DNA of 63,976 nt, counting the filler, from Raillietiella orientalis (Eukaryota): the NCBI GenBank assembly GCA_036172245.1. It is 17 parts of 17 records of this genome, joined end to end, with 100 filler letters (N's around TTAATTAATTAA, not from the genome) between each part and the next. Parts side by side here need not be neighbours in the genome. Positions count along the whole stretch, not along the records: positions 12,924 to 17,000 come from JAYWIR010000355.1; 16 more parts are not named here. One strand, 5' to 3'. The number at the start of each line of letters is the position of its first letter. Within the stretch, counting starts at the first letter, position 1. Shown in pieces: positions 3,001-59,170 of this stretch. The notes beneath the pieces are model-generated. The model saw only the letters and a list, made by a program, of their open reading frames with translations, had not been told where the DNA came from and made no database searches. The position numbers were made by a program, and so were the translations under genes.

Positions 3001-4227
3001 CGGCGTGCAAAGTGACTCGCCCTAATGAAATGTCGGACTGTTCTTCATCGACCTCTAAACGAAGGGAATTGCAACGTAGTGTGGTGATCCATGCCGGTAG
3101 ATTGCTTCGCACTGCCAACGGATGTTTCGTGAAAAAGCTCAAAAGTGCCAAGGTGAAATCTCCGTACTACGAATTGATTACAAAACAGCAAAAAATGTAA
3201 ATTAATACCATACCGTGAATCAGATCGAATTAAAAAATTCACTTTTTAACTCCGACAGTGGTTGCCATCAAAACAACACGGAGTGCAACGTGTCATACCC
3301 TAATCAAATGTCGGACTTTTCTTAATCCACCTCTGAAACCAGGAAATCGCATGATGGTGCGGTTTAATGACGGTAGATTGCCTCGCGCTGCCAACGGATG
3401 CTTCGTGAAAAAGTGCAGCAGTGCATGGTGAAATCTCCTCACTTCGAATTGATTACAAACCAGCAAAAGATGTAAATTTGTACCACACCATGAATCAGAT
3501 CGAATTAAATAATTCACTTTCTAATTCCGACAGTGGTTGCCAAGAAAAGAACACGGAGTGCAAAGTGTCCCACCCTAATCAAATGTCGGACTTTTCTTAA
3601 TCCACCTCTAAACGCAGGAAATCGCAAGGTAGTGTGGTGATCCTTGCCGGTAGATTTCCACGCGCTGCCAGCGGATGCTTCGTGAAGAAGCGCAAAAGGC
3701 CAATGGTGGAATCTCCGAACTACGAATTGATTACAAACCACCAAAAGATGTAAATTTATACCATATTGTGAATCTGATCGAATTAAATAATTCCCATTTC
3801 AATTCCGACAGTGGTTGCCATGAAAACAACACATCGTGAAAAGTGCCCCGCCCTAATGAAATGTCGGACTGTTCTTCATCCACCTCTAAACGCAGGAAAT
3901 CGCAAAGTAGTGTGGTGATCCGTGCCGGTAGATTTCCACGCGCTGCCAACGGATGCTTCGTGAAGAAGCGCAAAAGTGCAATGGTGAAATCTCCGTACTA
4001 CGAATTGATTACAAACCAGCAAAAGATGTAAATTTATACCATACCTTGAATCGGATCGAATTAAAAAATTCACTTTTTAACTCCGACAGTGGTTGCCATG
4101 AAAACAACACGGAGTACAAAGTGCACCGCTCTAATGAAATGTCGGAATTTTCTTAATCCACCTCTGAAACCAGGAAATCGCATGATGGTGCGGTGATCCA
4201 TGACAATAGATTGCCTCGCGCTGCCAA
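1..4227. repeat. Satellite DNA array, ~278 bp monomer, ~15 copies, trimeric (~831-834 bp) higher-order structure
   Basis: The motif TCCGACAGTGGTTGCCAT recurs every ~277-278 bp. Diagnostic variants (CACCTCTGAAACCAGG vs CACCTCTAAACGCAGG) and spurious ORFs recur at 831-834 bp offsets. Confidence 0.97.
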
Positions 4228-4327
4228 NNNNNNNNNNNNNNNNNNNNNNNNNNNNNNNNNNNNNNNNNNNNTTAATTAATTAANNNNNNNNNNNNNNNNN
4301 NNNNNNNNNNNNNNNNNNNNNNNNNNN
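4228..4327. other. Artificial contig linker (N44-TTAATTAATTAA-N44), repeated at all 16 gaps
   Basis: Identical 100-nt spacer with stops in all six frames; contig lengths fall monotonically from ~4.2 to ~3.5 kb. Confidence 0.97.
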
Positions 4328-7300
4328 GCTTCGTTGCAGCCAGAACCCTCCAAGGCTGGCAAGAAGGCCGTAAGGCGTCCGGCCTCCCCTCAGGAGTCCC
4401 CCACTTCCGACCCCGAGGTGGAGGGCTGAAGCGCAGCCTCGGTTTCCACGGCACCGCGGAAGAAGGCTGGACGTAAGTCCACAAAGCCAAGGAAGCTCGT
4501 CTCCCCCGTCGAAGGGGAAGAGATGGCTTCCGCAAGCGAGGGTGCCATGAGCGTGGGAAACTCTCGGGACCCGTCGCCCGAGAGACTCCTTAGCACGGAC
4601 ACGGAGGGGATGGAGGGGATGGAGGCCGAACAGGTGCCTCGGGTGCCTGAGAAGGCCGAAACCCCCATGGACATCCCGCCCTTCTCGCAAGAGGAGGGCT
4701 CCCCCACACCTTAATCTTCCTAGCAGTAATGCCGGGAATCTCCTCCCGCCGTCGTCTGCGCATCGCCGTTTGAAACGTGAACGGCATGACAGACGCCGGC
4801 AGGAGACGAGACATGGCCGCCCTTCTCGAGTCCTACGACCTTGCGCTGCTGCAGGAGATCCACGTGATCTCTGCAGAACAAGCACAAGTGATCGAACGGA
4901 TCTCCGGAGGGCGGCTATGGTAAACGTGTGGGAGAGCGAAAAGTTGTGGTGTCGCCTACCTGCTTCGGCCAGGCGTCGTGGCCGCGGTTCGGGGCGTACG
5001 GTTCGACGATCACGGTCGTGTCGGCCAGCTGACTCTCAGGTGGTCCGACTCGATCGATCTGATCGTCACGAACGTGTACGCACCGAGCGGCAAGGACCTG
5101 ATGAACAGGAGGGCGAGGAAAGAGTTTTTCCTTGCCCTCCGGCGAGACCGGATGACCGAAGCAGGCGTGCGGAATGCCCATCTGGTTGCAGGCGATTTCA
5201 ACGTTCGCCTGAAACCAGATGGGCAGAAACCCGAGCGTGACCTGGTCAACGAGGTGTGCATGGCGGTGCACACCTGGAATTTGTTGGCCAGTGCACCGGG
5301 GATGGAAGACAGCATTGACCACGTGTTTGTTGACGAGCACCTGTGCCCTCGCGTGGGCAGGCGCGGCAATTTACCGTGCGAGCTGTCCGACCATCGCCCG
5401 CTAGTCCTCGAGATCCATCCGCGCGACAGGGGCCCGCCCTCGTCAGCGTGTCGTCTCCCAGGGGACAGGCTGAAGCTCCCGGACGCGGCGGAACTTCTCC
5501 GCACGTTCATACGGAGCTTCAGGCTCCGAACACTCCAGGATTGGGACCGCTTCAAGCGGTCGGTCCAGGAGCTCTGCGACCAGTTCCCCCTGCATCGCCT
5601 ACCTGCGGGATTTGGGGAGGGGTCGCGTAACGAAAGGTGCTATCTTCAAACCCGACGTTACGCGAGAACCCCCGACATGCACAGGTTAGCAGAGTATCGA
5701 GCGAAAGCCGAGAGGCAAGCCTGGCAATCCGCGTCGGCCAGCTTGCTGGACGACCAGGGCCGGGAGCACTCGGTTCCCGCTCAGAAACGCGGGATAGTGA
5801 GGAAATTTTACTCCTCCCTGTACACCAGGGCGCCTCCGGAGCGAGACGTCTCACGACTTCTGCTTCCGGAAGGTGCTCCAGCGATCGGGGAGGAGGAGAA
5901 AAGAAGCCTCGACGAGCCTTTCACGATGGACGAGATCCTGTTGGCCATCGGAAAGCTCCAGAAACGCAAGGCCCCAGGGGAGGACGGCCTGCCCGCGGAG
6001 TTTTACCAAACTTTCGCGGCTGAGCTTACCTTCCTGGTACAGCAACTCACCTTGCTGATACGCAAAACAGGTGACGTTCCCGCCTCGTTTCGATCGGCAA
6101 AGGTGCGGCTCCTCCCTAAGGGAGGAGATCTGAGGAGCATGAACAACTGGCGTCCCATCACAATAGTGAATGCGGACGCCAAATTGATAGCCAAGATGTG
6201 GGCAGAGCGTCTGGGACGGGTTGCCAACATCTTCATCAGCCCGGAACAGACATATGCTGTTCCCGGGCGAAGCATGGAGGCGAACCTGTTCCACGCTTCC
6301 ACCTGGCTAGAGCTTCAACATGAAAGGAGCTTGGTGCGCAGCCGGAATTCCGGTGCGTGCGCTGGCAAGGGGTTGGCTGGTCCGGTGGGGGAGGGAGCCC
6401 TTGCGGTCGCAATAGACTTGCGAAAAGGATTCGATTGCGTCGAACAGAATCTCCTTCTGGAGCTTCTGGAACGCTTGGGCTTCCCGGCCTCATTAGTGGC
6501 CTATCTGCGCTCCTGCTGCCGCGACGCGCACATCAATGTTACTTTCAGCGGGCAGACCGTGCACGGCGTGCCGGTGCGGCGTGGGATCCGGCAGGGAGAC
6601 AGCCTGAGCCCCTTGCTCTTCAGTACCTACTTTGAGCTGGTACTGAGAGCGTACAGGGGAACTCTGGCGCACCTGCCGCACGATTGTGCCGGTACGCCGG
6701 CCGTTTCAGCGTACGCGGACTACCTTCTGCTGCTGCTCCCTATGTCCACCCCGGCTGCGGCGGTCGAGAAGTTCTTCGACCTGCTGCATCGGGGAACCGG
6801 ACTTACGGTGAACAGGGCGAAGTCGTCCGTGATGCCAGTTGGTGCGGCGTGGGCAGGGCAGCAGGACTAGGTTCGTTTGGGGATCCCCTCGGTGAGGTAC
6901 TTCAAGTACCTTGGTGTGCCGTTGGGGGACTATTTCCCTGCGGAAGCGTGGTCCGGCTGCCTCCAAAAAGTAGAGACGGTGATCGGCCCGTTCCGAGGCG
7001 GCAGGTTTTTCCTGCCTGAACGGGCCGCGGTTTGGAACATGTTCGCGGCTCCTCTCCCCCGTTCCCTGCTTTTCGTTTGCACCCCCACAGAGAGGATAAA
7101 AAAGCGGACGAAGGACCTTCTCCGTATCGCCCTTTGGGGCAATGGGAGGGCCCGAGTCCGCTTAAAGGACTTGTGAGCTCCTCGTCGGGATGGTGGTCTG
7201 GGCCTCCTGACGCTGGAGCGGCTGGAGCTTCAGCTCCAGTTCCGTTTCATGGCTATTGTGCCGGAGTTGTGGTGCACCTGCTGGTGCGTTCCTGCACGTC

Positions 7301-8527
7301 TCCTCCTTCAGCAAGCCACCGGCAAGACGGGACTGACGTCGTTTCTTGCACTCCGTCGCCGCGTCAACCGATGCGGACTCCAGCTACGGAGGGTGGCTGC
7401 GCTAGCAAGGAAAAATCAAGGATTGCTCACCTGTCTCCCCGCAAACGGTAGTGCCTGGTTGCAGGAAACCGTTCGCACCTGGAGACAGTTCGGCATGCAA
7501 CGCTCCCAACAGGAACGAAGGTTCCTGTTTGGGGGTTACAGAAGTTGCACGCTCCGCGAGATCCTGGAGGATCCAAAGAAGAGAGCGTGTGCAGGAAGAA
7601 CCCCCCTTGCTGCTGTGCTCGACTCCCTAGTGGAACATCAGGACAGCGATGTTGCGGCGAAGTGGGAGGTTTCAGTTACAATCTCCGGAAAGGAGAAGAA
7701 GATAGGAGAGTGGAAGACGGGCCAGTTAACAGACGCTGCGACCCCGAGTACGCCTCCCAATGGACTTCTGAGCTGGGGCGCGCTGCTCGACGTTCCCATT
7801 CAACGTTTGAAGTGGTCCCCGGTACTGATGAACACTTCCACCCTTCCCTTAAAATGGCAGGAGTCGGCTCTCCTGTTACAGCACTGGGGACTCCCCTGCA
7901 ACGCCCGCCGACACCACTGGACCTGGGGAGCGGTGGACCCCTATTGCGTCAGGTGTGGGGAACGGGAGTCCCTCCCCCACCTGCTAGTGGATTGTGTTGC
8001 CCTCCGGCCCCTCTGGTTTCGCTTTGCCGCGGCCATCGGAATCCCCTGCGGCAACCCCAGGGACGCACTGAAAGCCCTCTTCGTTGCCGACGCCCTTCTG
8101 CCAGCGGCCTCGTTAGCAGCTTTGTGCTGCCTACGCGGGATCGTCACCGCTTGGAGCAAGGCTACGGGAGAACAACGCGACCAGGGTGCCATCCAGCCAG
8201 CCTCCCAGTTCCAGAGGAGGGCATCCCGATGGCCCCACCTGGATCCAGGAATACAGAAGGAGCTTGCCGGCATCCTGCAAAGGATGCAACGGCCCCACCA
8301 GCAACTGTGATCCCTTCCCTTACCCTCCCAGTTTTTTCTTTTCTTTTTGTTTTGTTTTTGTTTTTCCCCCTTCCCCCTGCTGCCGTGGTGGACCGTACCG
8401 GTCTGCAAACCGGTGACCCGGGAGGCTCTGTGTTTCTTCGTGCGTGGCTGGAGCAATGTTCCAGCCACAGCACGTCTTTGTAAATGTTTATTTTACAATA
8501 AACGCCCCGGCGAAATCCGGGTGAAAA
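4328..8527 (+). mobile_element. Tx1/L1-clade non-LTR retrotransposon, family A (ORF1 3' end, complete decayed ORF2, 3' UTR)
   Basis: ORF1 tail ends at 4714 and ORF2 ATG is at 4729. T-rich 3' UTR, AATAAA 8497-8502, hairpin, terminus TGAAAA 8522-8527. Confidence 0.95.
4729..8310 (+). pseudogene. ORF2 APE endonuclease-reverse transcriptase-zinc finger, family A, with in-frame stops
   Basis: (W)NVNG, LQE, GDFN and SDH (APE); WRPITIVN, DLRKGFD, GIRQGDSLSP, YADY (mutated YADD) and KYLG (RT); CVRC...HLLVDC. Stops at 4771, 4921, 6868 and 7174. Confidence 0.95.
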
Positions 8528-8636
8528 TCGAACGCCNNNNNNNNNNNNNNNNNNNNNNNNNNNNNNNNNNNNNNNNNNNNTTAATTAATTAANNNNNNNN
8601 NNNNNNNNNNNNNNNNNNNNNNNNNNNNNNNNNNNN

Positions 8637-10875
8637 ACAGGTTGGCTCTTCGCTTCATGTTAAAGTCCACTCGAGTGTACTTCGCTGCTTCGTTGGCCGT
8701 TTTCCCCAGGATTTCCGTCCACAGCAGTTTCGACGCAGAGTCGTCGCCGATGTAGACTCCCAGGTACTTGGCCGTGTCCACCGTACGGAATCCACTCCCC
8801 GTTAGAGTGGAGAGGTTCAGGATTCCGACGGGCAAAAGCTGGCTCTTTTGGGAATTGATTTTCAAGCCCAGTCCCTGTTCCATCAGGTCCACCACATCCA
8901 GAAACGCACGCTGATTTTTCTCTCCCTTGATGAAGAAGAGGAGATCGTCGGCGTAAGCTAGATGGGTAAGGCGTTGACCCTCAATGGAAATCCATTGGAG
9001 GCGTCCGCTCTTCTCGTTGTAAGAAGACAACGCCTCCATGTAGATGACGAACAGCATCGGACTTAGCGAGTCGCCCTGCCGGACTCCCCGTTCCATCCTG
9101 ATTGCTGCCGTCTCTTGGCCGTTGATCTTGATCCGGCAGTACTGGTTCTGGAGTACCGCCCTCACGAAGTTGCTGAAGTGTTCCGGAAGCCCTAGCTTCT
9201 CCAGAACCTTCAGCAGCATCCCATGGTCGATGGAGTCGAAGGCCTTCTCCATGTCAGTGAACACCAGCACCAGGTTCTCGCCGACGTATCGACTGAGTCC
9301 AACAGTGGCCTGGGCACACTTGACATTGTCCGACATGTGTCGTCCTGGGACTGCACATGTCTGGACCGGAGAGATCAGCCTCGACATGACCTTGCCTAAG
9401 CGGTTGGACCAGATCTTCGCCAACCACTTGGCATCGGAGTTTAGGATCGAGATTGGCCTCCATTGGGCGATCTGGGTGAGGTCGCCTCCTTTTGGCAGCA
9501 ATCTCATCCGACTCTCGTAGAAGGACTGAGGTAGTCTGCCTTCTTCCCGGATGCAGAGGGTCAACTGGTGGAACAAGCGCAGGTAGGCGTGCAGGTACCG
9601 CTGATAGTGCGTGATGGGTACACTGTCAGGGCCCGCTGCCACGTCCTTGCGAAGTTGCCCAAACGCAGTCTTCACCTCTTCTTCGGAGAACTCCTCCTCC
9701 AGTCTGTTCCGCTGGAGGTCGTCGGTCCTCTTCTCGAGATAGCTCAAGAAGGCCTGTTGACTAGAGCGACACAGCTGTTGTCGCCTGAAGTGTTTCGTGT
9801 AATGCCTGTGAAAGGCATCCACGATGTCCTCAGACGACTGTCGCTTTTGGCCGTCGTACTGGATGCAGAAGATATCTGTTGCCAGATTCCTCTTCTCCAG
9901 CACGCCGACTTCCCCTTTCACGTTTTGGAAGACGTACCGGCTCTCGTACTGATCGAAGTACTTTGAGAGGGAGCGATCTTGGATGTTCAGCTCCTGGTAC
10001 GCTTTCTGCCTTATTCGATTACTAAAGTACTGCATGTTGAAAAACAGATGGATCCTGTGCTTCAACCTGTCCCAGTCGGCGACTCTGCGGATGATGGTGT
10101 CCCGCAGAATCGCCTTGATGACTTCCTGGTGACAGGGATGCGTTTCAAACCAGGCGGGCATGCAGATGAGCGCCGCCCTGGTGGCCTTTTCCTTCCGAGG
10201 ATTCTCTGTGCGGAGTGTAAACCGTACCCTTGGGTGATCGGACAACAGGTGTGGAATGTCCCGAAAACCCTGGATGCGGTTGTCTATCTCCGCGCTGTAG
10301 AGCACGTGATCGATCGGTTCGTGGCTAGCTGTTCGCCACAGAAGTCCGAAATCGTCGGACAACCGCCGATACGCCGCTCTTCCTCTTGCATCCTGAGAGT
10401 ACTTGATCTCGTCGAGGATGTTCAAGTCACCCGCGACGATGATGATGTCCTTCGGTGCCACTCGTTTGCGGAGTTCTTTGTGTAGTGCCTCCGCGCACCG
10501 ATGCTCCAACTTATGGGGCCCGTATACGTTCACCAAGAAGAGATGAACGTTGCTGGACCAGGACAGTCGCACGCCGATGATCCTACCAGGTACCGGACAG
10601 AAGGTTTCCAGAATGGTGTGGGCGAGCTCGTTTTCGATGAGGATCGCCACCCCCATGGTCTTCTTTTGTCCTTCGCTGGTGAACAGTTGCCCGTTTAACC
10701 GACGTTTCATCTCCAGGGCGTTCTGGTGCCCGAGATGGTGGGTTTCCTGAAGGCACACTACATCTTGTCTTGCGATGGTCCGCATGACACTTTTCCTTTT
10801 CCCCTGGTCCGTCAGTCCATCCACATTCCAGGAGGCGATGTTGATCCTCCTGGCACTGGACAGCGACGAGGCCAT
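8637..10875 (-). CDS. ORF2 APE endonuclease/reverse transcriptase, family G (open to contig end)
   Basis: IASWNVDG, CLQETH, AGDLN, SDH; WRPISILN, DMEKAFD, GVRQGDSLSP, YADD, KYLG. Confidence 0.92.
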
Positions 10876-10887
10876 GAAAGGGGGAGT

Positions 10888-12800: not shown

Positions 12801-12923
12801 TGAGGGCACACAAAAATTGCCGCNNNNNNNNNNNNNNNNNNNNNNNNNNNNNNNNNNNNNNNNNNNNTTAATTAATTAANNNNNNNNNNNNNNNNNNNNN
12901 NNNNNNNNNNNNNNNNNNNNNNN

Positions 12924-12974
12924 GAGAGTTCTGCGAACAGTTCCCTGTGCAACGTCTTCCCCGGGGATTCGGCG
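12924..12974 (+). mobile_element. Host ORF2 fragment (EFCEQFPVQRLPRGFG) interrupted by an antisense family B insertion
   Basis: Translates as the conserved EN-RT linker seen intact at ~5575-5615, ~54595-54640 and ~56095-56140. Confidence 0.85.
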
Positions 12975-15079
12975 TTGCCACCCGGGTACGCCCGGGGCGT
13001 TTTTTTATAAAAACTCTACAATTGCGGTACCAGGCCCCGCTCACGGCCTTATGCACTTGACCTACCGGGACGCCGGGACACAGCCCGGCGTGGCACTCCC
13101 CGGCAGCGAAAGGGGATGGGGGAAAACAAAAATAAAAACAAAAAGGCAAAAAAAAAAGTGAGGTTGGGGGGCAGGGAAGAAATCACTGTTCGCTGAGAGG
13201 AGGGCCCATCCGTTGAAGGAAGCCCTCGAGGTCCATCCGTAGATTCCCCAGTTGGGGCCATCCAGCAGCTCTCCGCAAGAAGCGTTGGGCATATGGGATG
13301 ACATCCCTCGCGTGTTGACCCACTCCTTCCTTGTTGGTGTCGCTCCATGCCGCCACGATGCCTCGAACGCAGCACAAGGCTGCAAGGGCTGCGGCTGGCT
13401 GCAGGGCGCCCTTCACGAAGAGGGGCCGAAGAACGTTTCTAAGGGAACTGCCCGTTGGGAGACCGAGGATCGTCCCAAACCGTTCCCAAAGAAGACGAAG
13501 GGCAGCACAGTCCACAATAAGGTGGGAGAGCGATTCCCGCTCTCCGCACCTGACATACGCAGGATCCACAACTCCTCTTGTCCAGTGAGAGCGGCGTGCG
13601 TTGCAGGGTAAACCCCAATACAACAACAGCAACGCCGACTCTTTCCACTTAAGGGGCAGGATCCTGGATTCCTGAAGAAGCGGGGGCCACTTCAGCACAT
13701 CCATAGGGATGGCCAGCAGCTCTCCCCATCTTCTTAGTCCTCGCGGCTGGACGCTCGGGGTCGTGGCGTCACCCAGTTCTCCTGTTGTCCAGCCGCTGAT
13801 CAACTTTTCGCGTCCCTCGATGCAGCAAGAGACTTGCCACCTTGGCGTCCGGCTGCTGTGAAGTACCCTCTTCAGGAAGGGCAGCGCCGTAGCTAGACAG
13901 GTCGTCTCTGCCCACGTGCATCTTGCTGGACTCTCCAGGAGATTCCGCAGCGTGCAGCGGGCGTAGGGGCTGCATCGGAGACGATTCCACGTCTCGTGGC
14001 TTCTCTGGTTGACTACTGCCCACGTTCCAATATTCTCCTCCAGCCAGGCGGGGGAGTTGGCGGGGCAGCAAACCATCCAGCTGTTCTCCTTGGCCAATGT
14101 TGCCATGCGCCCGAGCAGTAGGCCGCATCTTCGCATCTACCGGCCACGGCTGAGAAGACAAGACGCGAGTCCATCGCACCGGGACACACGGCTGGCCTGG
14201 AGGCGGGCTGGAGTGCACCAAGGGGTGCACCACATGTTCGCTGGGATGGCGAGGGTTCGCCACCGCAGCTGCTTCTCCACGCGCTCCAGCGTCAGGAGGC
14301 CAAGACCGCCGTCCCGACGAGAAGCGCACAAGTCCTTCAGTGGGATTCGCGGCCTCCCCTTGCCCCAAAGGGCGATACGGAGGAGGTCCTTCGTCCTTTT
14401 CTTGGATTCCACGGTGGGAGCGCAAACAAAAAGCAAGGGGCGGAGGATGGGGGCCGCGAACGCGTTCCAAACCGCGGCCCGTTCCGACAAATTAAACTTG
14501 CCTTCCAGGAACGGGCCGATCGCCGTCTCGACTTTTTGGAGGCAGCTGGACCACACTTCCGCAGGGGAGTAGTCCCCCAACGGCACACCAAGGTACTTGA
14601 AGCACCTCGCCGTGGGGATCCCCAGACGGACCCAGTCCTGCTGCCCTGCCCACGCCGCACCTATTGGCACAACCTACGACTTCGCCCTGTTAACCTGCAG
14701 TCCGGTCCCGCGGCTGAGCAGATCGAAGAAGTCTCCGACCGCCTTCGCCGGGGTGGACATTGGCAACAAGAGCAGAAGATCGTCGGCGTACGCTGCTACG
14801 GCGGGCGTGCCGGGGCACGAGCTCGGCAAGGGAGCCAAAGTTAACCTGTACGCTCTCAGCACCAACTCAAAGTAGGTGCTAAAGAGCAGGGTGCTGAGGC
14901 TATCGCCCTGCCTTATGCCCCGCCGCACCGGCACGCCATACAACTTCTGTCCACTGAAACAGACGGTAATCATCGCATTCCGCCAGCAGGAGCGCAGGTA
15001 GGAAATCAGGGAGGGTGGGAAGCCCATGCGACCCAGGAGCTCCAAGAGGAGTTCCTGGTCTACACAGTCGAACGCCTTG
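12975..15079 (-). mobile_element. Family B element, 3' half of ORF2 (from RT KAFD to stop at 13183) plus 3' UTR
   Basis: KAFDCVDQELL, GIRQGDSL, YADD, KYLG, zinc finger; hairpin terminus at 12975-13000; closely similar to 56960-59061. Confidence 0.93.
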
Positions 15080-17000
15080 TGCGCTCCAGGGTGGAAGTGT
15101 TTTCTCGGTGCTCTTCGTGCCAGGAAGTCTCCCCCAGTGCAAGCGTCGTGTGGTTCGGTGGTCGATCAGGCAGCGAAGCCTGACGCGACCACCAGGGATG
15201 GCCAGGGGGCAGCGACAACGCCGCCCCCAGAGGCGATGGAGAGCCAGGGGGCGGCGGCAACGTCGCCCCCAGAGGCGATGGAGGTGGGGGCATCCGCCCC
15301 CACAGAATCGGTCCCCGCTGCAGCGCGGGCGTGGAGCGCCGTTATGTCGGCGCCATCGCCTGCAGCCGCGGCGGAATTGTCGGCCTATGTAGAGGAGGGG
15401 TACAACCCCTCATTGTTCTACAAGGTAGGCAATTTATATTCTTTAGAGAGCGCGCGCGCTTTCTCGAAGGGCATGCGCGCTCTCGATGTGAAAGAGAAGG
15501 AGCTCAGCGCTATGACCATCCGCAGCGGGGGTCTGCACGTTGAGGTCATCTGCAAACATGCAGAGCTGTCCCAACGACTGCTTAAAACCCCCGTTGTGAT
15601 GGGGACGCGCAGGCTCCTCCCCACTACGGCGGACCGCAGCATGGTGGTCCACCTGTTAGGCGTCACCGCGCGAATGCGCAAAGAACAGGTACGCGCCCCT
15701 TTGGAACAGTTCGGAACGGTCCACGCGCAGTGGACGAAAGTAAGTCCTTTCGAGGACTACACGGGGCTGCAACACGGCCTCACTGCTGCGCGCGTGACCG
15801 TTCGGGAGGGCTGCACTCTTCCCCACAAACTGGTGGTCGAAGGCGAAACCGTCGACCTCTGGTATGTGGGGAAGCCGAAATACTGTGGCTTCTGCAATAC
15901 GTCGGGCCACCTCAAAAAGAGGTGTCCCAACGTGCAGTGCCAAGTATGCGGCACAATGGGCCACACGAGGGAGGTGTGCCCAAAAGCAGCAGTGCGGGTG
16001 GTTTCCAAGAGAAACCTTAAAAAACGCGCCCGGCTTCTGCAGAAAAGGCTGGCGGCGAAAGCTGCCGCGAAGGCTGTGCCACCCGCGCCCAAGACCCAGG
16101 CCGCACCCGAGACCCCGGCGACCAACGCCGAAAAAGTTGAGGGAGCCGGCCAGGAGACTGGGTGGCAAGTGGCAACGGACAAAAAATCAAAGGAGAGGAG
16201 GATGGAAAAGAAAATCGCCTACCAACAGAAGAAGAAAGAGCAGGGTAGCGCGATAATTAAAGAGTGCAGCGTCGTTGTCGAACGGGTTCTCGATGTTGCC
16301 GAACGCTGCCGGAAAGAACTCGCCGCTACCGACGACCTCCCCTCTGTTGACACAGTCAACAGCGAGGGGAGCGAGCCGGCGGCGGCGTCCGTCATCGACA
16401 CCACCATCGATGACGTAGCCTTCGCGCGAGCCGCGGAGGAGCTGGCAGCTTCGTTGCAGCCAGAACCCGCCAAGGCTGGCAAGAATTCTGTAAGGCGTCC
16501 GGTCTCCCCTCAGGAGTCCCCCAATTCCGACCCCGAGGTGGAGGCCGGAAGCGCAGCCTCCGTTTCCACGGAACCGCGTAAGAAGGCTGGACGTAAGTCC
16601 AGAAAGCCAAGGAAGCTCGTCTCCCCCGTCGAAGGGGAAGAGATGGCTTTCGCAAGCGAGGGTGCCATGAGCGTGGGAAACTCTCGGGACTCGTCGCCCG
16701 AGAGACTCCCACGCGCGGACACGGAGGGGATGGAGGGGATGGAGGCCGAACAGGTGCCTCAGGTGCCTGAGAAGGCCGAAACCCCCATGGACATCCCGCC
16801 CGCCTCGCAAGAGGAGGGCTCCCCCACACCTTAATCTTCCCAGCAGTAATGCCGGGAATCTCCTCCCGCCGTCGTCTGCGCATCGCCGTTTGGAACGTGA
16901 ACGGCATGACAGACGCCGGCAGGAGACGAGACATGGCCGCCCTTCTGGAGTCCTACGACCTTGCGCTGCTGCAGGAGATCCACGTGATCTCTGCAGAACA
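15080..17000 (+). mobile_element. Family A element, 5' end, full ORF1 and start of ORF2 (ATG 16849)
   Basis: 5' UTR matches 21226-21544 (-); the ORF1/ORF2 junction matches 4328-4880. Confidence 0.93.
15236..16834 (+). CDS. ORF1 nucleic-acid-binding protein, family A (RRM-like region + 2 CCHC)
   Basis: CGFCNTSGHLKKRC and CQVCGTMGHTREVC, Lys-rich then acidic tail. First in-frame ATG used; the true start is uncertain. Confidence 0.85.
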   Translation: MESQGAAATSPPEAMEVGASAPTESVPAAARAWSAVMSAPSPAAAAELSAYVEEGYNPSLFYKVGNLYSLESARAFSKGMRALDVKEKELSAMTIRSGGLHVEVICKHAELSQRLLKTPVVMGTRRLLPTTADRSMVVHLLGVTARMRKEQVRAPLEQFGTVHAQWTKVSPFEDYTGLQHGLTAARVTVREGCTLPHKLVVEGETVDLWYVGKPKYCGFCNTSGHLKKRCPNVQCQVCGTMGHTREVCPKAAVRVVSKRNLKKRARLLQKRLAAKAAAKAVPPAPKTQAAPETPATNAEKVEGAGQETGWQVATDKKSKERRMEKKIAYQQKKKEQGSAIIKECSVVVERVLDVAERCRKELAATDDLPSVDTVNSEGSEPAAASVIDTTIDDVAFARAAEELAASLQPEPAKAGKNSVRRPVSPQESPNSDPEVEAGSAASVSTEPRKKAGRKSRKPRKLVSPVEGEEMAFASEGAMSVGNSRDSSPERLPRADTEGMEGMEAEQVPQVPEKAETPMDIPPASQEEGSPTP

Positions 17001-17100: not shown

Positions 17101-17175
17101 ATGGAGAAAAAAGTCGCGTACCGCCAGAAAAAACATCAGGCAAGCGAGCAAATTAAAAAATGCAGCGTTGTCGTT
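17101..17175 (+). mobile_element. Family A-type ORF1 fragment (MEKKVAYRQKKHQASEQIKKCSVVV), host of a family C insertion
   Basis: Homologous to 16202-16279 and to 47237-47312 (-). Confidence 0.85.
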
Positions 17176-19612
17176 TATTACCCGGTTGCGCCGGGACGTT
17201 TATTATAATATCAACTGAGAACTGTGTTCCCAGGCAAGGGGAACAGAAAATGGGGAGTAGATTTCCCGGAACGCCGTACGGGCACACTGAGAGTTCGGAA
17301 CGGGAGGGGGTGAGACAATAAATGAATAAATTGGTTGGGAGGGCGGGGACACGGGTATACAGTCTAACCGTTCCTATTCTCAGAACCGGCGGTGAATGCC
17401 GCCGATCTCCGTCCTCACTTCTGCTCCTAGGTGTGGCCACCCGGCAGCCATTTGCAGGTTGCAGGCTGCGGTGTCGGGGACCGATGTTGGGACTGCTGGC
17501 ATCGGCAATACGTGGCGGGCCGTGACAATGGCGCGGACGCAGCAGATGATTGCGACGAGCGCTCCAAGAGAAAGTCCGCCACGCGTGTAGAAGGGGCGCA
17601 TCCAATCCAGTGCGGTGTGTCCAGAATGCAGGGGCGCTGAAGACAGCCGCTGCCACAGCTCCTGGAGGGCACCGCACTCAAACAGCAAATGCGGAAGCGA
17701 TTCCACCGCTCCGCATTTGGCACAGTTCGGGGACGCAACTACCCCGGAAATCAGGTGCGCCCGCTAGTTGCAGTACAAACCCCAATGCACCAGCAGAAAA
17801 GCGTCCTGCTTCCACAGAAGGGGAAAGAGAGTCGCGTCCAAACACGCAGAAGGGACCACAAGTTCATCGGTGGGCACCCCGAGGAGCTCACTCCACCGGA
17901 GAAGCCCCTTTGCAAGAATGCGAGGTGTGGCAGCGTCTGCCACTTCGCAAGTCCGCCAGCCGCCCAGCAGTCGGGTTTCGCCTGCGATTTCGAAAGTGAT
18001 CTCCCACCTCGCCGGCAGGTCACTGTCATCTCGCACCATCAGTGCACACAGTGCTTCGGCGAGTGGCGTAGCGGCAAGGCGTGTCCACTGGTCCTGGTCT
18101 TCCAGCACCTCCTCCACTGGACAGTATAGGGAAAGTTTCACGCAACGGAGTTCCCAACGGGACACATCCTGCTGCGTAGCCCAAAACGATAAGGCTTCCT
18201 GCCTCCAGGCGTTGAATTTCGTCGGCCGGCAGGAGATCCAGTCATGCTTTCCCAGAAGCGTGGCGAGCTGCTTCAAAGGGAAGCCGAATCCTCTCTGGGC
18301 GCGCTCCGTGCGCAGATGCAACGAACGTAGTCCGTCGCCACCGGTGCAGCGCCGCAGCAGCAGCCGCGCTGGAGCACACCGGGGAGTATTCCAGAGCTGC
18401 GCACAAAGAGCCAGCATGCGGAACTGCACTAGCAGTCCGATCCGCTCCAGAGTCAGGATGCCCAATCCTGCATCCCGCCGAGGAGCCGCCAAGTCCTTCA
18501 GGCGCATCCTGAACCTCGCCGGTACCCACAGGGCGTTACGCAACAGCCGCTGCGCCCGGAGCTTAGCCGAGTAGGGAGGGGGACAAACAAAAAAGAGGGG
18601 ACGGAGGAGGGGGGCAACGAAAATGTTCCACACGAAGGCCCGTTCCGACAGGAGAAACCTGCCGCCTTGGAACGGGCGCAGAGCAGTCTCGGCCTTGTGA
18701 AGGCAGTCCGACCACGCTTCTGCTGGACAGAAGGTGCCCAAGGGAACGCCGAGGTACTTCAAGCACCTGTCTGTGGGGATCCCCAGGCGGATCCAGTCGG
18801 ACTGCCCCTCCCACGTAGAGCCAACCGGTACAACGGTTGATTTCGTCCTGTTGACGCTAAGGCCGACGAATGAGCTCGAAGAAGTCCTCGAGCCTGGACG
18901 CCGGGGTGGACATGGGCAGCAGCAGGAGAAGGTCGTCAGCATAGGCGGCCACGGCCGGTGTTCCCGGGCAGGAGCTCGGCAGGTTGGCCAGCATCAGCCT
19001 GTACGCCCTCAGCACCAACTCAAAGAAGATGCTGAAGAGCAGGGGGTTTAAGCTGTCTCCCTGCCTGATACCCCGCCGTATGGGAATGCCGTACACGTGG
19101 CGCCCGCTGAAAGAGATACAGCATAACGCGTGGCGCCAGCAGGAGCGCAGGTAGGCGATGAGGTGCGTCGAGAGGCCTAGGCTTCCCAGAAGCTCCAGAA
19201 GGAGGTCCTGGTTTACGCTGTCGAACGCTTTGCAGAGATCGACGGCGACCGCTAGGGCTCCCGGCGTTCCATCGTGCCTTGAACACCGCCGCTTACCTTT
19301 GGCAGCGGCGATTTTGGCTGCCTGGCTCTGCTGCGCCACGCGCTGCTGCAACTCGAACCATGTTCGCGCGAAGAAAAGATTCGCGTCCATGGACCGCCCC
19401 GGAACAGCATACGTCTGCTCCGGACTTACCAAGGACTCTGCGATTCTCCTTAGGCGCGCGTCCCATAGCCTGGAGAACAACTTGACGTCCGAATTCACCA
19501 ATGTGATCGGACGCCAGTTGCTGAGGTGGCGCAAATCACCGCCTTTCGGCAGGAGCCGCACCTTTGCTGAGCGGAAAGAAGAGGGAACATCTCCCGTCTC
19601 ACGTAGCAGCGA
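17176..19612 (-). mobile_element. Family C element, RT through 3' UTR, decayed
   Basis: WRPITLVN, DLCKAFD, GIRQGDSL, YADD, KYLG, CAKC zinc finger; closely similar to 44790-47236. Confidence 0.93.
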
Positions 19613-21125
19613 CGGTCGCGTACGGACGTGGTTTTGCGTCGCTCCGCGGTAGATTGGCTCTTGTGTGTTTTTGTTCTGCTGTGCTTTTGTGCTGCAATGG
19701 GAGCAAAGAAGAACATCAGCTGCAAGAAGGGAACGCCACCTGCTCCTGAGATGGCTGCTTCGGCTGCTAGTAAGGAGCCTCTGTCCTCGCGACGGCGAGG
19801 ACATTCGCCCAGGTCGCTGCCCTCGCGGCTACGATGGGACCTTCGCCCGACAGCCCTGAGCTTCAGGCGTATGTAGCAAATGGCTACACGCCTGCACTCA
19901 GGTATAAGGTAAGTTTCCTTATGCCTGAGCGGGTTGAGCGCGAGTTTGGCCAGGTACTCCAACGGATTGGAGTTCAAAAAGGCCAACTGGAGTCCATCAT
20001 GCCCATGAGTGGATGCAGCTACTGGGAGGTGTCCAGTAAGGACGCTCTCCTTACGCAGCGTTTGCTGCACACGCCGCTCCTCATTCGTGGGCAGGAAATA
20101 CTCCCTGTCACAACGGACCAGTCGTTCGTTGTCCGGCTCAGTGGAGTGTGTAAGGGCCTTTCGGACCTCCAGGTCGTGGAGGCCCTTGAAAAATTCGCTA
20201 CCGTCCACGCGCTTTGGAGGCTGCCAAATCCTGCTGAAGGGTTCGAAGACCACCACAGCGGGCTCGCGCAAGTGCGAGTGACGATGACGGATCGCCGTGC
20301 AATGCCCACGCGACTGCAGTTGGATGGAATGACCGTCCGCCTGTGGTTTGCCGGGCAAACGCGTGTATGCGCGGAATGCGGGCAGGAGGGTCACCGCATT
20401 ACGAAGTGTCCCTCGGCCGCTTGCTGTTACTTCCACCAGCACGGGCACACTAAAGGAACGTGCCCGGAGCTCCTTTTAAAAAACGAAAAGCGCAGGAACG
20501 AATCGCGTTCCGCATTGCGGAATAATCGCCGCGAATCGAGAGAAAGAAACATCAAAGCTCCAAAAAGCGTTGCGAAAACCGCGACCACGCACGTGCAGAA
20601 AACTATTTCTCGCCCCCACAAAGAAGGGGTGAAAAACAAAAAAAAACTTGTCGAGGCAAAGCCTCCGGCTATCGACCCGAAGGAACCTCGCGAAGAATGC
20701 GACCTTTCTACGAGACCTCGCTGCCAATTGTTGAATGCAGGAGACATTGTACCGAAGGTCAAAGAGCCTCGTACTGTCGGCATCACGACCGCGAAGCCTC
20801 GTACCAAGGCCTCGACGAGCGGCGCGGAATGCGGTAGTTCGCCCGATACGGGAAAAACGCTCCCGCGGGCAAAGAACTCCGCGCCGTCTAAAGCTACCGC
20901 GGCCAAGGTGCCCCAGGCACCGAGTGCCGCGAAGAAACAGCCGGCAAACCCGCAGTCCTCGCGCGGACGCAGCGCCTACTGCGGCCAAGGAAGAAACTGC
21001 TAGGACGAGCACAACCGCTACAGCAGTGCCCCCAACGGTCGCAAAGGCAACGCGCGAACCCTCCGACCTGGAAGAGGCAGCGCCTCTCGCGATCGCTAAG
21101 TTTCCCCAAGTCCCACAAGGGGTAG
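19613..21125 (+). mobile_element. Family E element, 5' end and ORF1 (frameshifted; ~19697-21003)
   Basis: 5' motif GGACGTGGTTTT...GCTCC at 19624. ORF1 is homologous to A/B ORF1 (LQAYVANGYTPALRYKV; CAECGQEGHRITKC). Confidence 0.88.
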
Positions 21126-21544: not shown

Positions 21545-21556
21545 CAAGGCGTTCGA

Positions 21557-24500
21557 TTTTCACCCTGATTTCGCCGGCGCGTTTATTGTAAAATAAACTT
21601 TTACAAAGACGTGCGGTTGCTGGAACATTGCTCCAGCTACGCACGAAGAAACACAGAGCCTGCCGGGTCATCGGTTCGCAGACCGGTATGGTCCACCACG
21701 GCAGCAGGGGGAAGGGGGAAAAACAAAAAACAAAACAAAAAAAAAAAGAAAAGTTGAGAGGGTAAGGGAAGGGATCACAGTTGCTGGTGGTGCCGTTGCA
21801 TCCTTTGCAGGATGCCGGCAAGCTCCTTCTGTATTCCTGGATCCAGATGGGGCCATCGGGACTCCCTCCTCAGCAACTGGGAGGCTGGCTGGATGGCACC
21901 CTGGTCGCGTTGTCCTCCCGTAGCCTTGCTCCAAGCGGTGACGATCCCGCGTAGGCAGCACAAAGCTGCTAACGAGGCCGCTGGCCGAAGGGCGTCGGCA
22001 ACGAAGAGGGCTTCCAGTGCGTCCCTGGGGTTGCCGCAGGGGAAACCGATGGTTGCGGCAAAGCGAAACCAAAGGGGCCGAAGGGCAACACAATTCACTA
22101 GCAGTTGGGGGAGGGACTCCCGTTCCCCACACCTGACGCAATTGGGGTCCACCGCTCCCCAGGTCCAGTGTTGTCGGCGGGCGTTGCAGGGGAGTCCCCA
22201 GTGCTGCAACAGGAGAGCCGACTCCTGCCATTTTAAGGGGAGGGCGGAAGTGTTCATGAGCACCGGGAGCCACTTCACATGTTCAATGGAAACATCCAGC
22301 AGCGCGCCCCAGCGCAGAAGTCCATTGCGAGGCGTACTCAAGTACTCAGCGTGTGTTAACTGGCCCGTCTTCCACTCTCCTATCTTCTTCTCCTTTCCAG
22401 AGATTGTTACTGTAACCACCCACTTCGCCGCAACATCGCTGTCCAGGTCTGTCATCAGGGAGTTCAGCGCAGCAGCGAGGGGGGTTCTTCCTGCCCACGC
22501 TCGCTTCCTTGGTTCCTCCAGGATCTCGCGGAGTGTGCAACTTCTGTAACCCCCAAACAGGAACCGTCGTTCCTGTTGGGAGCGTTGCATGCCGAACTGT
22601 CCCCACGTCCAAACGGTTTCCTGCAACCATGCACTACCGTTCAACGGGCGACAGGTAAGCAATCCTGGGTTTTTCCGATACAGCGCAGCCACCCTCCGTA
22701 GCTGGAGTCCGTATCAGTTGACGCAGAGACGGAGTGCAAGAAATGTCGTCAGTCCCGTGTTGCCGGTGGCTTGTTGGAAGAGGAGACGTGCAGGGACGCA
22801 CCAACAGATGCACCACAACTCTGGAAGGAGTGCCGACAAGCGGAACTGGAGCTGAAGCTCCAGCCGCTCCCGCGTCAGGCGGCCCAGACCACCATCCGGA
22901 CGAGGAGCGCACAAGTCCTATAAGCGGACTCGGGCCCTCCCGTTGCCTCAAAGGGCGATACGGAGGAGGTCCTTTGTCCGCTTTTTAATTCTCTCTGTGG
23001 GGGGGCAAACAAAAAGCAGTGAGCGGAGGGGAGAAGCCGCGAAGGTGTTCCAAACTGCGGCCCGTTCAGGCAGGAAAAACCTGCCGATTCGGAACGGGCC
23101 GATCGCCGTGTCTACTTTTCGGAGGCAGCCGGACCACGCTTCCGCAGGGGAGTAGTCCCCCAACGGCACACCAAGGTTCTTGAAGTACCTCACCGTGAGG
23201 ATCCCCAAACGGACCCAGTCCTGCTGCCCTGTCCACGCCGCACCAACTGGCATCACGGACGACTTCGCCCTGTTCACCGTAAGTCCGGTTCCCCGATGCA
23301 GCAGGTCGAAGAACTCCTCGACCGCCGCACTCGGGGTGGACATAGGGAGCAGCAGCAGAAGGTCGTCCGCGTATGCTGAAACGGCCGGCGTACCGGCACA
23401 GTCGTGCGGCAGGTGCGCCAGAGTTCCCCTGTACGCTCTCAGTACCAACTCAAAGTAGGTACTCAAGAGGAAGGGGCTCAGGCTGTCTCCCTGCTGGATC
23501 CCACGCCGCACCGGCACGCCGTGCACGCTCTGCCCGCTGAAAGTAACATTGTTGAGCGCGTCGCGCCAGCAAGAGCGCAGTTAGGCCACTAATGAGGCCG
23601 GGAAGCCCAAGCGTTCAAGAAGCTCCAGAAGGAGATTCTGGTCGACGCAATCGTATGCTTTTCGCAAGTCGATTGCGACCGCAAGGGCTCCCTCCCCCAA
23701 CCGACCATCCAACCCCTTGCCGGCGCACGCACCGGAATTCCGGCTGCGCACCGAGCTCCTTTCATGTTGGAGCTCTAGCCAGGTGGAAGCGTGGAACAGG
23801 TTCGCCTCCATGCTTCGCCGGGAACAGCATATGTCTGTTCCAGGCTGATGAAGATGTTGGCAACCCGTCCCAGACGCTCTGCCCAAACCTTAGCCACCAA
23901 ATTGGCGTCCGCATTCACTATTGTGATGGGACGCCAGTTGTTCATGCTCCTCAGATCTCCCTTAGGGAGGAGCCGCACCTTTGCCGAACGAAACGAGGCG
24001 GGATCGTCACCTGTTTTGCGTATCAGCAAGGTGAGTTGCTGTACCAGGGGAGTAAGCTCAGCCGCGAAAGTTTGATAAACCTCCGCGGGCAGGCCGTCAT
24101 CCCCTGGAGCCTTTCGCCTCTTGAGCTTTCCGATGGCCGAGAGGATCTCGTCCATCGTGGAAGGCTCGACGAGGGTCTTTCTCTGCTTTTCTTGCATCGC
24201 TGGAGCGCCTTTCGGAAGCAGGAGTCGTGAGGCGTTCCTCTCCGGAGGTGCCCTGGCATACAGGGAGGAGTAGTAACACTGCAGCAGGCCGCGGATTTGG
24301 GCAGGTGCCGAGTGCTCCTGGCCCTGATCGTCCAGTAAGGTGGCCGATCCGGACTGCCAGGCTTGCCTCTCGGCTTCCGCTTTGTATTCCGCCAGCCTGC
24401 GGATGTCGGGGGTCCTGGCGTAACGACGGGCCTGCAGGTAGGCTCGTTCGTTACGGACCCCGGTCCCAAAACCCGTGGGTAGGCGGTGCAGAGGGAACTG

Positions 24501-25194
24501 GTCGCAGAACTCCTAGAGCGACCGCTTGAAGCGGTCCCAATCCTGGAGTGTCCGCAGACTGAAGCTCCGTATGAACGTGCGGAGTTGTTCCGCCGCGTCC
24601 GGGAACTTTAGCCAGTCCCCTGGGAGACGCCACGCTGACGAGTGGGGGCCCCTTTCGCGCGAATGGATCTCGAGCACTAGCGGGCGATGGTCGGACAGCT
24701 CGCACGGTAACTTGCCGCGCCTGCTCACGCGAGGGCACAGGTTCTCGTGAAGAAACACGTGGTCAATGCTGTCTTCCATCCCCGGTGCACTGGCCAACAG
24801 ATTACAGGTGTGCACCTTCATGCACACCTCGTTGACCAGGTCACGCTCGGGATTCTGCTCATCTGGTTTCAGGCGAACGTTGAAATCGCCTGCAACCAGA
24901 TGGGCATTCCGCACGCCTGCTTCAATCAGCCAGTCTCGCCGGAGGGCAAGGAAAAACTCTTTCCTCGCCCTCTTGTTCATCAGTTCCTTGCCGCTCGGTG
25001 CGCACACGTTCGTGACGATCAGATCGATCGAGTCGGACCACCTGAGAGTCAGCTGGCCGACACGACCGTGATCGTCGAACCGCACGCCCCGAGCAGCGGC
25101 CTCGACGGTTGGCCGAAGCAGGTAGGCGACACCGCAACTTTTCGCTCTCCCACACCTGTACCATAGCCGCCCTCCGGAGATACGTTCGATCTCT
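21557..25194 (-). mobile_element. Family A element, decayed ORF2 (to stop at 21775) and 3' UTR
   Basis: Collinear with 4890-8527; several frameshifts and stops; KAYD variant at ~23650. Confidence 0.94.
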
Positions 25195-28200: not shown

Positions 28201-28904
28201 CCACGGTGCTCATGAACTCGCGCACCCTCCATATGAAGTGGCAACAGTCGGCACTCCAGGTGTTGCATTGGGGCCTCTTCTGCAATGCCCGCCGACACCA
28301 CTGGACGCGGGGGGTGTCAACCCCAATTGTGTAAGTGCGGGGAGAGGGAATACCTCCCCCACCTGCTAGTGGGATGTGTTGCCCTCCGTCCCTTGTGGGA
28401 ACGCTTTGCCGCAGCCCTGGAGATCCTCGGAGGCAACCCCAGAGACGCTTTACGCCCCCTCTTGGTCCGTGATGCTCTGCCCCCGGCGGCCTCGCTTGCA
28501 GCCCTATGCTGCCTACGCGGGATCGTCGTGGCCTGGAACAAAGCGACGGGAGGGTCCAGCGACAGCGACGCCACCGTGTACGCCGCTCGTTTCCTGAGGA
28601 TGGCGACGCGATGGCTTCATCTGGAACCCACCATTCAGCGACAGCTTGCCGGCATCCTCCAGAGGATGACGGACCCTCCCAGCAGACAGTGATCTCTTCC
28701 CGCTCCCTCCCCGGTTGTGTTTATTTCTTTGTTTCCTTTTTCTTTGATTCCCCCTCCCCTCTGCTGCCGAGGTCGACCGCGCCGGTCTGTGCACCGCTAG
28801 CCCGGCAGGCTGAATGTTTCCAGGGCGTGGCTGGACTACTGGTCCAGTCACAGTTTGTATGAGTTTATTTGAAATAATAAACGTCCCGGCGTACCGGGTT
28901 TAAA
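25295..28904 (+). mobile_element. Family F element (A-like EN/RT, distinct C-terminal region and 3' UTR), decayed ORF2 ending 28692
   Basis: EN/RT are near-collinear with family A up to ~27340, then diverge; AATAAA 28876, hairpin, TTTAAA end. Confidence 0.9.
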
Positions 28905-29229
28905 GAGAGATTCTGGAGCGTGACGCCTCTTAGGAATTCGCGAAGGTGTTCCTTCGCACCTGAGAGTCGCGTCCAATACCCCGGCAGACGCCAATCCCTG
29001 GATGGCGGTCCCTTGTCGCGAGGACGCATCTCGAAAATTAACCGGGAATGGTCCGACAACGTCGACGCAACCCTCCCCCGTTAGCCGACCCGTGAACACA
29101 AGTCAGCGTCGAGGAAGACGTGGTCGATGCTGCAGACCATTCCCCTCTCACCCGCGAACAAGTTGCGCGCAAGCAAGGCAGCGCACAACTCGTTCATCGC
29201 GTTCTCTTGTGTTTCTGGCTCACCTGTTA
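28905..29229 (-). mobile_element. Family B endonuclease fragment, host of the family F insertion
   Basis: SDHSRLIFEMRPRDKGPPSRDWRLPG...LRGVTLQNL matches 55740-56060. Confidence 0.9.
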
Positions 29230-30674: not shown

Positions 30675-30898
30675 TGGGTGCGGGATGTTGGGGGATGCCA
30701 AGGCGCACCTAGAAGAGCTAAGGTGCGCGCGTTCCCTGCGTAGCTTTGACGGGGCCGCGCGTCAGGTCAGAGGTTCGATTCGAAATGACCACGGTGGGCA
30801 ACTGCGCTGCTCCCGAGTCCTACGTGCTGTTCTGAGGCGCGTGAGGGGCGCGTTAGAGACGATTAAGACTGAACCGGTAGTCGCAGATAAAGGTAGAT
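30675..30898 (+). repeat. Left arm of a ~220 bp inverted repeat
   Basis: Near-identical to the reverse complement of 32885-33101. Confidence 0.9.
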
Positions 30899-32884: not shown

Positions 32885-33101
32885 ATCTACCTTCATCTGC
32901 GACTACCGGTTCGGTGTTCCAACGCGCCCCTCACGCGCCTCAGAACAGCACGTAGGACTCGGGAGCAGCGCAGTTGCCCACCGCGGTCATTTCGAATCAA
33001 ACCTCTGACCTGACGCGCGGCCCCGTCAAAGCTACGCAGGGAACGCGCGCACCTTAGCTCTTCTAGGTGCGCCTTGGCATCCCCCAATATCCATCACCCA
33101 T
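32885..33101 (-). repeat. Right arm of the ~220 bp inverted repeat (runs to contig end)
   Basis: Reverse complement of 30675-30898 with a few substitutions and one small indel. Confidence 0.9.
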
Positions 33102-51788: not shown

Positions 51789-51909
51789 NNNNNNNNNNNN
51801 NNNNNNNNNNNNNNNNNNNNNNNNNNNNNNNNTTAATTAATTAANNNNNNNNNNNNNNNNNNNNNNNNNNNNNNNNNNNNNNNNNNNNCGTGGCCCCTCC
51901 CCAAATCCC

Positions 51910-59061: not shown

Positions 59062-59170
59062 CGCCGAATCNNNNNNNNNNNNNNNNNNNNNNNNNNNNNN
59101 NNNNNNNNNNNNNNTTAATTAATTAANNNNNNNNNNNNNNNNNNNNNNNNNNNNNNNNNNNNNNNNNNNN

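Follow-up and report, generated by a model that had tools for sequence, protein, structure and literature searches.

Ends of an L1-like LINE family adjoin one set of GFG codons in sibling LINEs of Raillietiella orientalis

Why do the ends of one family of long interspersed nuclear elements (LINEs) in Raillietiella orientalis lie against the same few codons of other LINEs, and how many insertions does this pattern record? The question is raised by a stretch of 63,976 bases from the assembly GCA_036172245.1, hereafter the window, which is made of 17 unlinked contigs (c1 to c17, ordered by length from 4,227 down to 1,233 bp) joined only by 16 linkers of 100 bp (N50-TTAATTAATTAA-N50, at 4228-4327, 8537-8636, 12824-12923 and 13 further places), so that any neighbourhood across a linker is artificial. 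All four termini in the window of the family that we call B, two of two 3' ends and two of two 5' ends, adjoin a single site in host LINEs, the codons Gly-Phe-Gly (GFG) of the second open reading frame (ORF2), in the same relative orientation and antisense to the host. That the junctions lie at the GFG codons is confirmed, and their reading as site-specific insertion is partly supported; we consider it probable that B is a sequence-specific LINE of the APE (apurinic/apyrimidinic endonuclease) type that targets the coding sequence of sibling LINEs.

By self-comparison, which revealed no long terminal repeat (LTR) in the window, related LINE pieces (A-, B- or C-related) make up 11 of the 17 contigs, and 8 of these 11 hold junctions with other LINE pieces, that is, nested clusters on existing copies. 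Family A comprises c2, c6, c11 and a 5' part in c4, with c7 as a more distant form, A2; family B comprises the 5' parts in c14 and c16 and the 3' parts in c15 and c4; family C is found in c5 and c12, and D and E are 5' ends in c5 and c11. The LINE reading frames encode Exo_endo_phos (APE) and RVT_1 (reverse transcriptase, RT) domains, which share one frame in family A and were recognised for B in c14 (Exo_endo_phos, E = 6.8e-12) and in c15 (RVT_1, E = 7.9e-17), and the best match in the PDB is human L1 ORF2p (E = 1e-26). Upstream of ORF2 in c14 lies ORF1, an open frame of about 600 codons to which no Pfam family corresponds. With an APE domain followed by an RT domain, an upstream ORF1 and a defined 3' end, B is an APE-type non-LTR retrotransposon, an L1-like LINE. 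Its loci, and the copies of its target to which the text refers, are as follows.

12924-12974, plus strand: fragment of a host LINE ORF2 at the contig start, cut at GFG by B, recognised by frame and alignment; its lineage is otherwise absent from the window.
12964-12974, plus strand: putative copy of the target-site duplication at the B 3' junction, GGGATTCGGCG on the host sense strand, deduced from the overlap with the flanks of the 5' junctions.
12975-15076, minus strand: 3' half of B, from the RT to the C-terminus of ORF2, with about 208 bp of 3' untranslated region (UTR); 91% identical to c15.
12975-13005, minus strand: 3' terminal module of B, consisting of AAAAAACG, a GC hairpin (CCCGGG / CCCGGG, 4-nt loop) and TGGCAA, without poly(A).
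15077-17000, plus strand: 5' UTR and ORF1 of family A, nested antisense in B; the boundary at 15077 is uncertain by about 4 bp because the two sides share TCGAACGCC(TTGT).
51889-51909, minus strand: 21-bp host fragment at the contig start, antisense of GFGEGP.., adjoining a B 5' end.
51910-55460, plus strand: 5' UTR, ORF1 and N-terminal part of ORF2 (APE domain) of B.
54633-54642, in c14: unoccupied copy of the target in B's own ORF2, GGATTTGGGG.
55561-59061, plus strand: B-type ORF2 (frameshifted) and 3' UTR ending in ...CCCGGGTGATAA; 80% identical to c14 where the two overlap.
59062-59070, plus strand: 9-bp flank CGCCGAATC after the B 3' end, reaching the contig end.
59171-59625, plus strand: 3' region of family A ending in ...GAGTGAAAA, antisense at the KAFD codons of the next host fragment.
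59626-60453, minus strand: ORF2 fragment of an A-clade host, from the GFG codons (B 5' end) to the KAFD codons (A 3' end), with one stop in about 277 codons.
60454-62643, plus strand: 5' UTR and ORF1 of B; 85% identical to c14.
5607-5617, plus strand: unoccupied target GGGATTTGGGG, codons G-F-G-E, in ORF2 of the family A contig c2.

The junction letters and coordinates quoted in the first-pass annotation are all present in the sequence. At the 3' junction of c4, the minus strand reads CCCGGGTGGCAA at 12975-12986 and then CGCCGAATC, which in the orientation of B gives ...CCCGGGTGGCAA / CGCCGAATCCCCGGGG... and leaves 51 bp to the contig end; at that of c15, the plus strand reads CCCGGGTGATAA at 59050-59061, again followed by CGCCGAATC, with which the contig stops 9 bp further on. 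Both 5' ends are directly preceded by CCCCTCCCCAAATCCC, which ends at 51909 in c14 and at 60453 in c16. The c14 contig opens on its 21-bp flank (CGTGGCCCCTCCCCAAATCCC / TTGGC-GAGCGGACGTG...), and c16 has the only long flank, of 828 bp (59626-60453; ...CGCGGCCCCTCCCCAAATCCC / TCTCCTCGA-GAGCGGACGTG...), an A-clade ORF2 fragment that begins, in antisense, at GFGEG. As had been proposed, the c4 flank is coding: read in frame from 12926 it gives EFCEQFPVQRLPRGFG, which corresponds in alignment to ELCDQFPLHRLPAGFG in A and EFCEEFPLHRLLPGFG in B. The position ascribed to the site, between endonuclease and RT, likewise agrees with the domain limits, Exo_endo_phos ending at residue 157 of protein P0001 and RVT_1 starting at residue 398.

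Where the element stops and the host begins can be settled from the other LINEs of the window. Their 3' ends, seven found by motif scan (8497-8527, 12975-13005, 17174-17204, 21557-21587, 28876-28904, 59031-59061 and 59595-59625) and one more in c12, all carry the same module, made of AATAAACG (AAAAAACG in the c4 copy of B), a short hairpin with a GC stem of 5-7 bp and a loop of 4-6 nt, GGGT(G) or a form that departs from it by one base (GAAT in c12), and finally 3-5 A-rich bases, with no poly(A). As this shared module defines the 3' ends independently of the flanks, CGCCGAATC belongs to the flank and not to B. At the other extremity, GGACGTGTTTT is common to the LINE 5' ends. Folded singly, six of the seven 3' ends form a hairpin over the shared arms, mostly with weak z-scores, and the c6 copy pairs elsewhere; one A copy has the arms CTCGG/CCGAG in place of CCCGG/CCGGG, with both sides of the stem changed, and RNAalifold predicted no pairs on the ungapped 3' ends. 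The conserved hairpin, together with the absence of poly(A), points to recognition of a specific 3' end by the RT.

A duplication of about 11 bp had been proposed for the insertion of B. The 5' and 3' sides of the junctions do overlap by 11 bp, with differences at 2 of the 11 positions between the two host types, and this part of the proposal stands; the duplication as such is deduced from unlinked junctions, none of them from a copy with both ends. The 11-mer CSCCRAATCCC occurs four times in the window, where 0.22 occurrences are expected and none of 100 shuffles reaches four. Three of the four adjoin a B terminus, and the fourth is the unoccupied site in ORF2 of c2 (5607-5617).

Could such joints have been made by the assembly rather than by the element? 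The pieces are all repeat contigs, 1.2-4.2 kb long; of the four junctions, three (with 9, 21 and 51 bp of flank) lie near contig ends, and many contig ends coincide with junction sites, as might happen if a short-read assembler had joined repeat families at short shared words. We nevertheless hold this to be very improbable, because the joins fall exactly at full-length termini defined by paralogy, in a consistent orientation and with an overlap that fits a target-site duplication, because no word shared at the joins is long enough to mislead an assembler, and because breaks a few bases past an element end are expected of real flanks that branch. That c15 and the family A contig c2 both stop 9 bp past a 3' end fits, as far as the behaviour of the assembler can be judged, a graph branching into several hosts.

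An accident of copying is another conceivable source, since the joints are head-to-head or tail-to-tail, unite related sequences and recur at one site; the head-to-head joints would then result from 5' inversion (twin priming), or from template switching, at a fragile place inside a single element. This seems to us hardly credible. A 5' inversion joins internal points of one RNA, whereas the joints seen here lie at complete 5' and 3' termini of B, and the neighbour in c16 comes from another family, being 89% identical to c2 of family A over 830 bp and 71-74% identical to B; moreover, the two sides overlap in the manner of a target-site duplication. Twin priming of a single LINE copy was rejected on these grounds.

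How many insertions the four junctions represent is a separate matter. The first-pass annotation counted four independent, diverged junctions; what the window holds is two pairs of nearly identical flanks, with 20 of 21 positions alike between the 5' junctions and 9 of 9 between the 3' junctions. Both 5' hosts resemble one A-type lineage, and each pair could be a single event that was duplicated later. Between the pairs the hosts differ. The c4 host shares 36-38 of 49 positions with every lineage of the window, as compared with 43-48 of 49 among members of the A clade and 43 of 49 between the two B copies; with the c4 host so far from the A clade and the c16 host within it, the host lineage of the 3' pair differs from that of the 5' pair. 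Judged from these alignments, at least two independent events are likely, and the window supports about two, not four.

An alternative that explains the pairs directly is that one or two ancestral nests, formed by chance landing in a sibling LINE, were multiplied by segmental or tandem duplication or by 3' or 5' transduction, the flanks then being shared by descent. The identity of the flanks within each pair is what this predicts, transduction is compatible with short flanks, and the 2 differences in 11 positions between the 5'-type and 3'-type copies of the duplication are within a decay of 10-15%. We consider such an origin unlikely, if well short of negligible, since the c4 host stands at the same distance from the A clade as B does, whereas the c16 host belongs to that clade. 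In addition, the flanks are less diverged than the B sequence beside them, with 1 mismatch in 30 against 61 in 389 in the adjacent 200 bp of B (Fisher one-sided p = 0.045), which is expected of a conserved target hit repeatedly and less so of a duplicate decaying neutrally. The two 5' junctions also differ in the unshared bases before GAGCGGACGTG, of which there are 5 in c14 and 9 in c16. By a rough hand estimate, two random hits in a 5.6-kb host would fall at one site, with an 11-bp overlap and in the same orientation, with a probability of about 21/5600/2 = 0.002.

Other families of the window bear on the same choice. Family A ends in ...GGGTGAAAA / TCGAAYGC; in c16 this is followed by an antisense A-clade host cut at the RT codons DLHKAFD, and in c2 by the same 9 bp and then the contig end. 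In c4, the 5' end of A cuts into the 3' half of B, at the KAFD codons of the B RT, and is preceded by this antisense B host (...ACACAG TCGAACGCC / TTGTGCGC...), and c6 contains a head-to-tail pair of A copies with only TCGAACGCC between them. The junctions of family A at KAFD, with the shared flank TCGAAYGC(C)TT, lie at 15068-15080, 59621-59640, 8519-8536 and 21548-21560. Contig c16 thus leads from the A 3' end, through a host stretch bounded by KAFD on the A side and by GFG on the B side, to the B 5' end. Family A is found at one spot in two clearly different hosts, B and the A clade, which are about 70-78% alike; with ancestral nests alone, chance would have to put two families twice each on one spot.

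Fixed junctions are seen elsewhere in four more lineages, namely A2 (c7), C (c5 and c12), D (c5) and E (c11). Beyond the 3' end of A2 (...CCGGGTTTAAA; 28876-28960, c7) comes B ORF2 in antisense, at a point about 25 codons upstream of GFG, a site other than that of its close relative A. The 5' end of D interrupts antisense C ORF2 in c5 (19612-19640), the same site being unoccupied in c12 (44793), and the 5' end of E, a lineage whose ORF1 has a zf-CCHC domain, adjoins antisense A within the APE coding region (43090-43300, c11), at a position that corresponds to about 4881-4892 in c2; the ends of c6 and c7 lie no more than about 10 bp from that host position. For family C, the 3' end is followed by antisense A-type ORF1 both in c5 (17101-17204) and in c12 (47238-47330), and as its flanks are about as alike as the C elements themselves, this looks like one nest duplicated later, which favours the ancestral-nest explanation to the extent that duplicated nests do occur here. 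By hand tally, all 10 of the 10 junctions with an identifiable host are antisense.

Several observations weigh against repeated site-specific insertion of B. The flanks are short at three of the four junctions, the contigs stopping there, and as both ends never occur on one B copy of the window, a true target-site duplication is not seen; the sole tie between the 5' and the 3' contigs of B is the overlap of c14 and c15, at 80% identity. The site is unoccupied in six other ORF2 copies and is perfect or nearly so in two of them, c2 and c14. Within the pairs, the flanks are as alike as the elements or more so, as a duplicated nest also gives, and the window contains such a nest in family C, with elements 91.7% alike and flanks about 89% alike by hand count. 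Finally, the argument from different host lineages comes down to 49 bp.

If site-specific insertion is accepted, the junctions suggest how it might proceed. B, an element that measures about 5.6 kb and comprises ORF1 and an APE-RT ORF2, would integrate by target-primed reverse transcription into one sequence, GGGATTYGGNG, which encodes G-F-G in the linker between endonuclease and RT of sibling LINE ORF2s. Its endonuclease would nick the host sense strand just behind GGNG, one base into the codon that follows GFG, and the nicked 3'-OH would prime cDNA synthesis from the 3' end of the B RNA, leaving B antisense to its host; a second nick in the other strand, 11 bp away, would yield the 11-bp duplication. 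The strand that serves as primer is indicated by c4, where the host sense sequence ...GGATTCGGCG joins the complement of the B 3' end, and the second nick is placed 11 bp away from the 5' joints. We infer the two nick positions, the duplication and the endonuclease, rather than pairing between RNA and target, as the source of specificity; the B termini, inspected by eye, showed no homology to the target by which insertion could be guided. Read-through transcripts that include the downstream duplicate could add RNA-target pairing, as is discussed for other target-specific LINEs (PMC4494074; this and the other papers given by PMC number are cited from excerpts). Because the site is also present in B's own ORF2 (c14, 54633), B could hit its own family.

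In three unoccupied copies of A type (c6, c7 and c11; 24400-24541, 25923-26070 and 42300-42443), the B site reads GGT TTT GGG ACC (G-F-G-T) in place of GGA TTT GGG GAG. This variant could be a poorer target, on evidence that is anecdotal, and such copies could be escape alleles in an arms race between transposons.

Extended to the other families, the mechanism leads to a broader proposal, which we put forward tentatively as a possibility that falls short of probable: the sibling LINEs may form a guild in which the endonuclease of each lineage has evolved to recognise a different conserved coding motif, present in the other lineages and in the lineage itself. B would use GFG and A would use KAFD, and other motifs would lie in the APE domain, in the linker and in ORF1. 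Insertion would always be antisense; every landing would destroy a rival copy at a place that is safe for the newcomer and renews itself, so that centromere-like nests made only of LINEs would be built. The uniform antisense orientation may come from nicking of the displaced sense strand in transcribed host copies.

The window contains some further repeats. Another, more distant APE/RT LINE family lies in c3 (8581-10887, minus strand), where it is preceded upstream by a zf-CCHC frame, and in c10 (37721-39022, plus strand), the two copies being 75.7% alike over 2 kb. Two AT-richer satellite arrays, at 39-4227 and 48220-51788, have periods of 278 and 277 bp and 15.1 and 12.9 copies, and are about 72% alike in opposite orientation. 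Contig c8, which has no LINE similarity, carries an inverted repeat of 224 bp with 92% identity (30675-30898 / 32885-33100) and about 2 kb between the arms.

Searches of outside data were also made. One public sequencing run, X1, contains a relative, with 13% of the c16 words; 276 short Logan contigs of this run could be placed on 12924-17000 at 80% likeness, with depth in 30 of 30 bins, and no loose end or joint at 12974/12975 is among those listed (at least 177 further loose ends exist), which is not decisive either way. The C-terminus of B ORF2 (P0009) found no relative among metagenome contigs, a 24-base pattern of the B 3' end had no match in the genome and viral contig collections, and a protein alignment used as query found no relative among genome contigs. 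A protein search with A ORF2 gave six matches; the best, P0003 (72% identity, 58% of the query covered), begins only downstream of the GFG region and is therefore uninformative on the site. An alignment of A with P0003 led, among metagenome contigs, to one locus, L001, at 25% identity, which was left out of account. Look-up in the Atlas returned only generic APE/RT clusters of mixed taxa.

Target-specific LINEs are known for ribosomal DNA, telomeres, small RNA genes, microsatellites and a few DNA or LTR transposons. The literature that we covered, PMC9940879, PMC11005252 and a 2025 preprint on ZeppL included, contained no report of LINE lineages with their own fixed sites in conserved codons of sibling LINEs; the original descriptions of Zepp lie outside that coverage, and an earlier description is possible. 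The closest known systems are Tx1 and Zepp. Members of the Tx1 group (Tx1L of Xenopus, the crocodilian Tx1-Mar, Tx1-8_Crp and Tx1-4_AMi, and Keno, Kibi and Koshi) are likewise sequence-specific APE-type LINEs, some of which go into other transposons: according to the excerpts of PMC4494074, Tx1 inserts into the piggyBac element Tx1D, Tx1-Mar inserts at fixed positions and in fixed orientations into Mariner-N4_AMi, and two families of the group insert in LTR retrotransposons. In the same excerpts, Kojima describes tandem insertions that sandwich one target-site duplication, for sequential insertion of target-specific, Tx1-mobilised elements, an arrangement that the A-A sandwich of TCGAACGCC in c6 resembles (PMC4494074). 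By their descriptions, the two cases are set apart by the target, which here is a conserved coding motif of sibling LINEs, B's own ORF2 included, and by the presence here of several sister lineages, each with its own site and all antisense.

Zepp (of Coccomyxa/'Chlorella') and ZeppL (of Chlamydomonas) are, by description, also GC-rich L1-type LINEs in nested clusters, said in the excerpts to 'target existing copies' (PMC8226300, PMC3446292). As these excerpts present them, Zepp arrays consist mostly of tandem 3' ends of one family, resulting from 5' truncation, with one cluster per chromosome. The clusters of R. orientalis differ in having full-length 5' ends at exact codon positions, several families and antisense orientation; in these loose contigs, full-length 5' ends stand at the junctions and one A-A pair is arranged head-to-tail. 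That an APE domain can cut both strands of one defined sequence is exemplified, in the excerpts of PMC1919474, by R1Bm in 28S rDNA. LINEs of the R1/TRAS type resemble B in their APE endonuclease and in defined 3' ends without long poly(A); their targets are multicopy host genes or telomeric repeats, unlike the retrotransposon coding sequence entered here.

If this reading is true, LINEs would have a target of a new class, a conserved protein-coding motif in relatives of the element itself, and insertion at such motifs would supply a concrete mechanism for the origin of nested clusters made only of LINEs, such as the Zepp-type arrays thought to form green-algal centromeres. In the sister families, nature would then have provided a set of APE endonucleases that recognise different long sequences, and a comparison of these enzymes could teach how specificity is re-programmed. 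The finding would also raise the idea that the transposon lineages of a genome compete with one another, perhaps even in an arms race.

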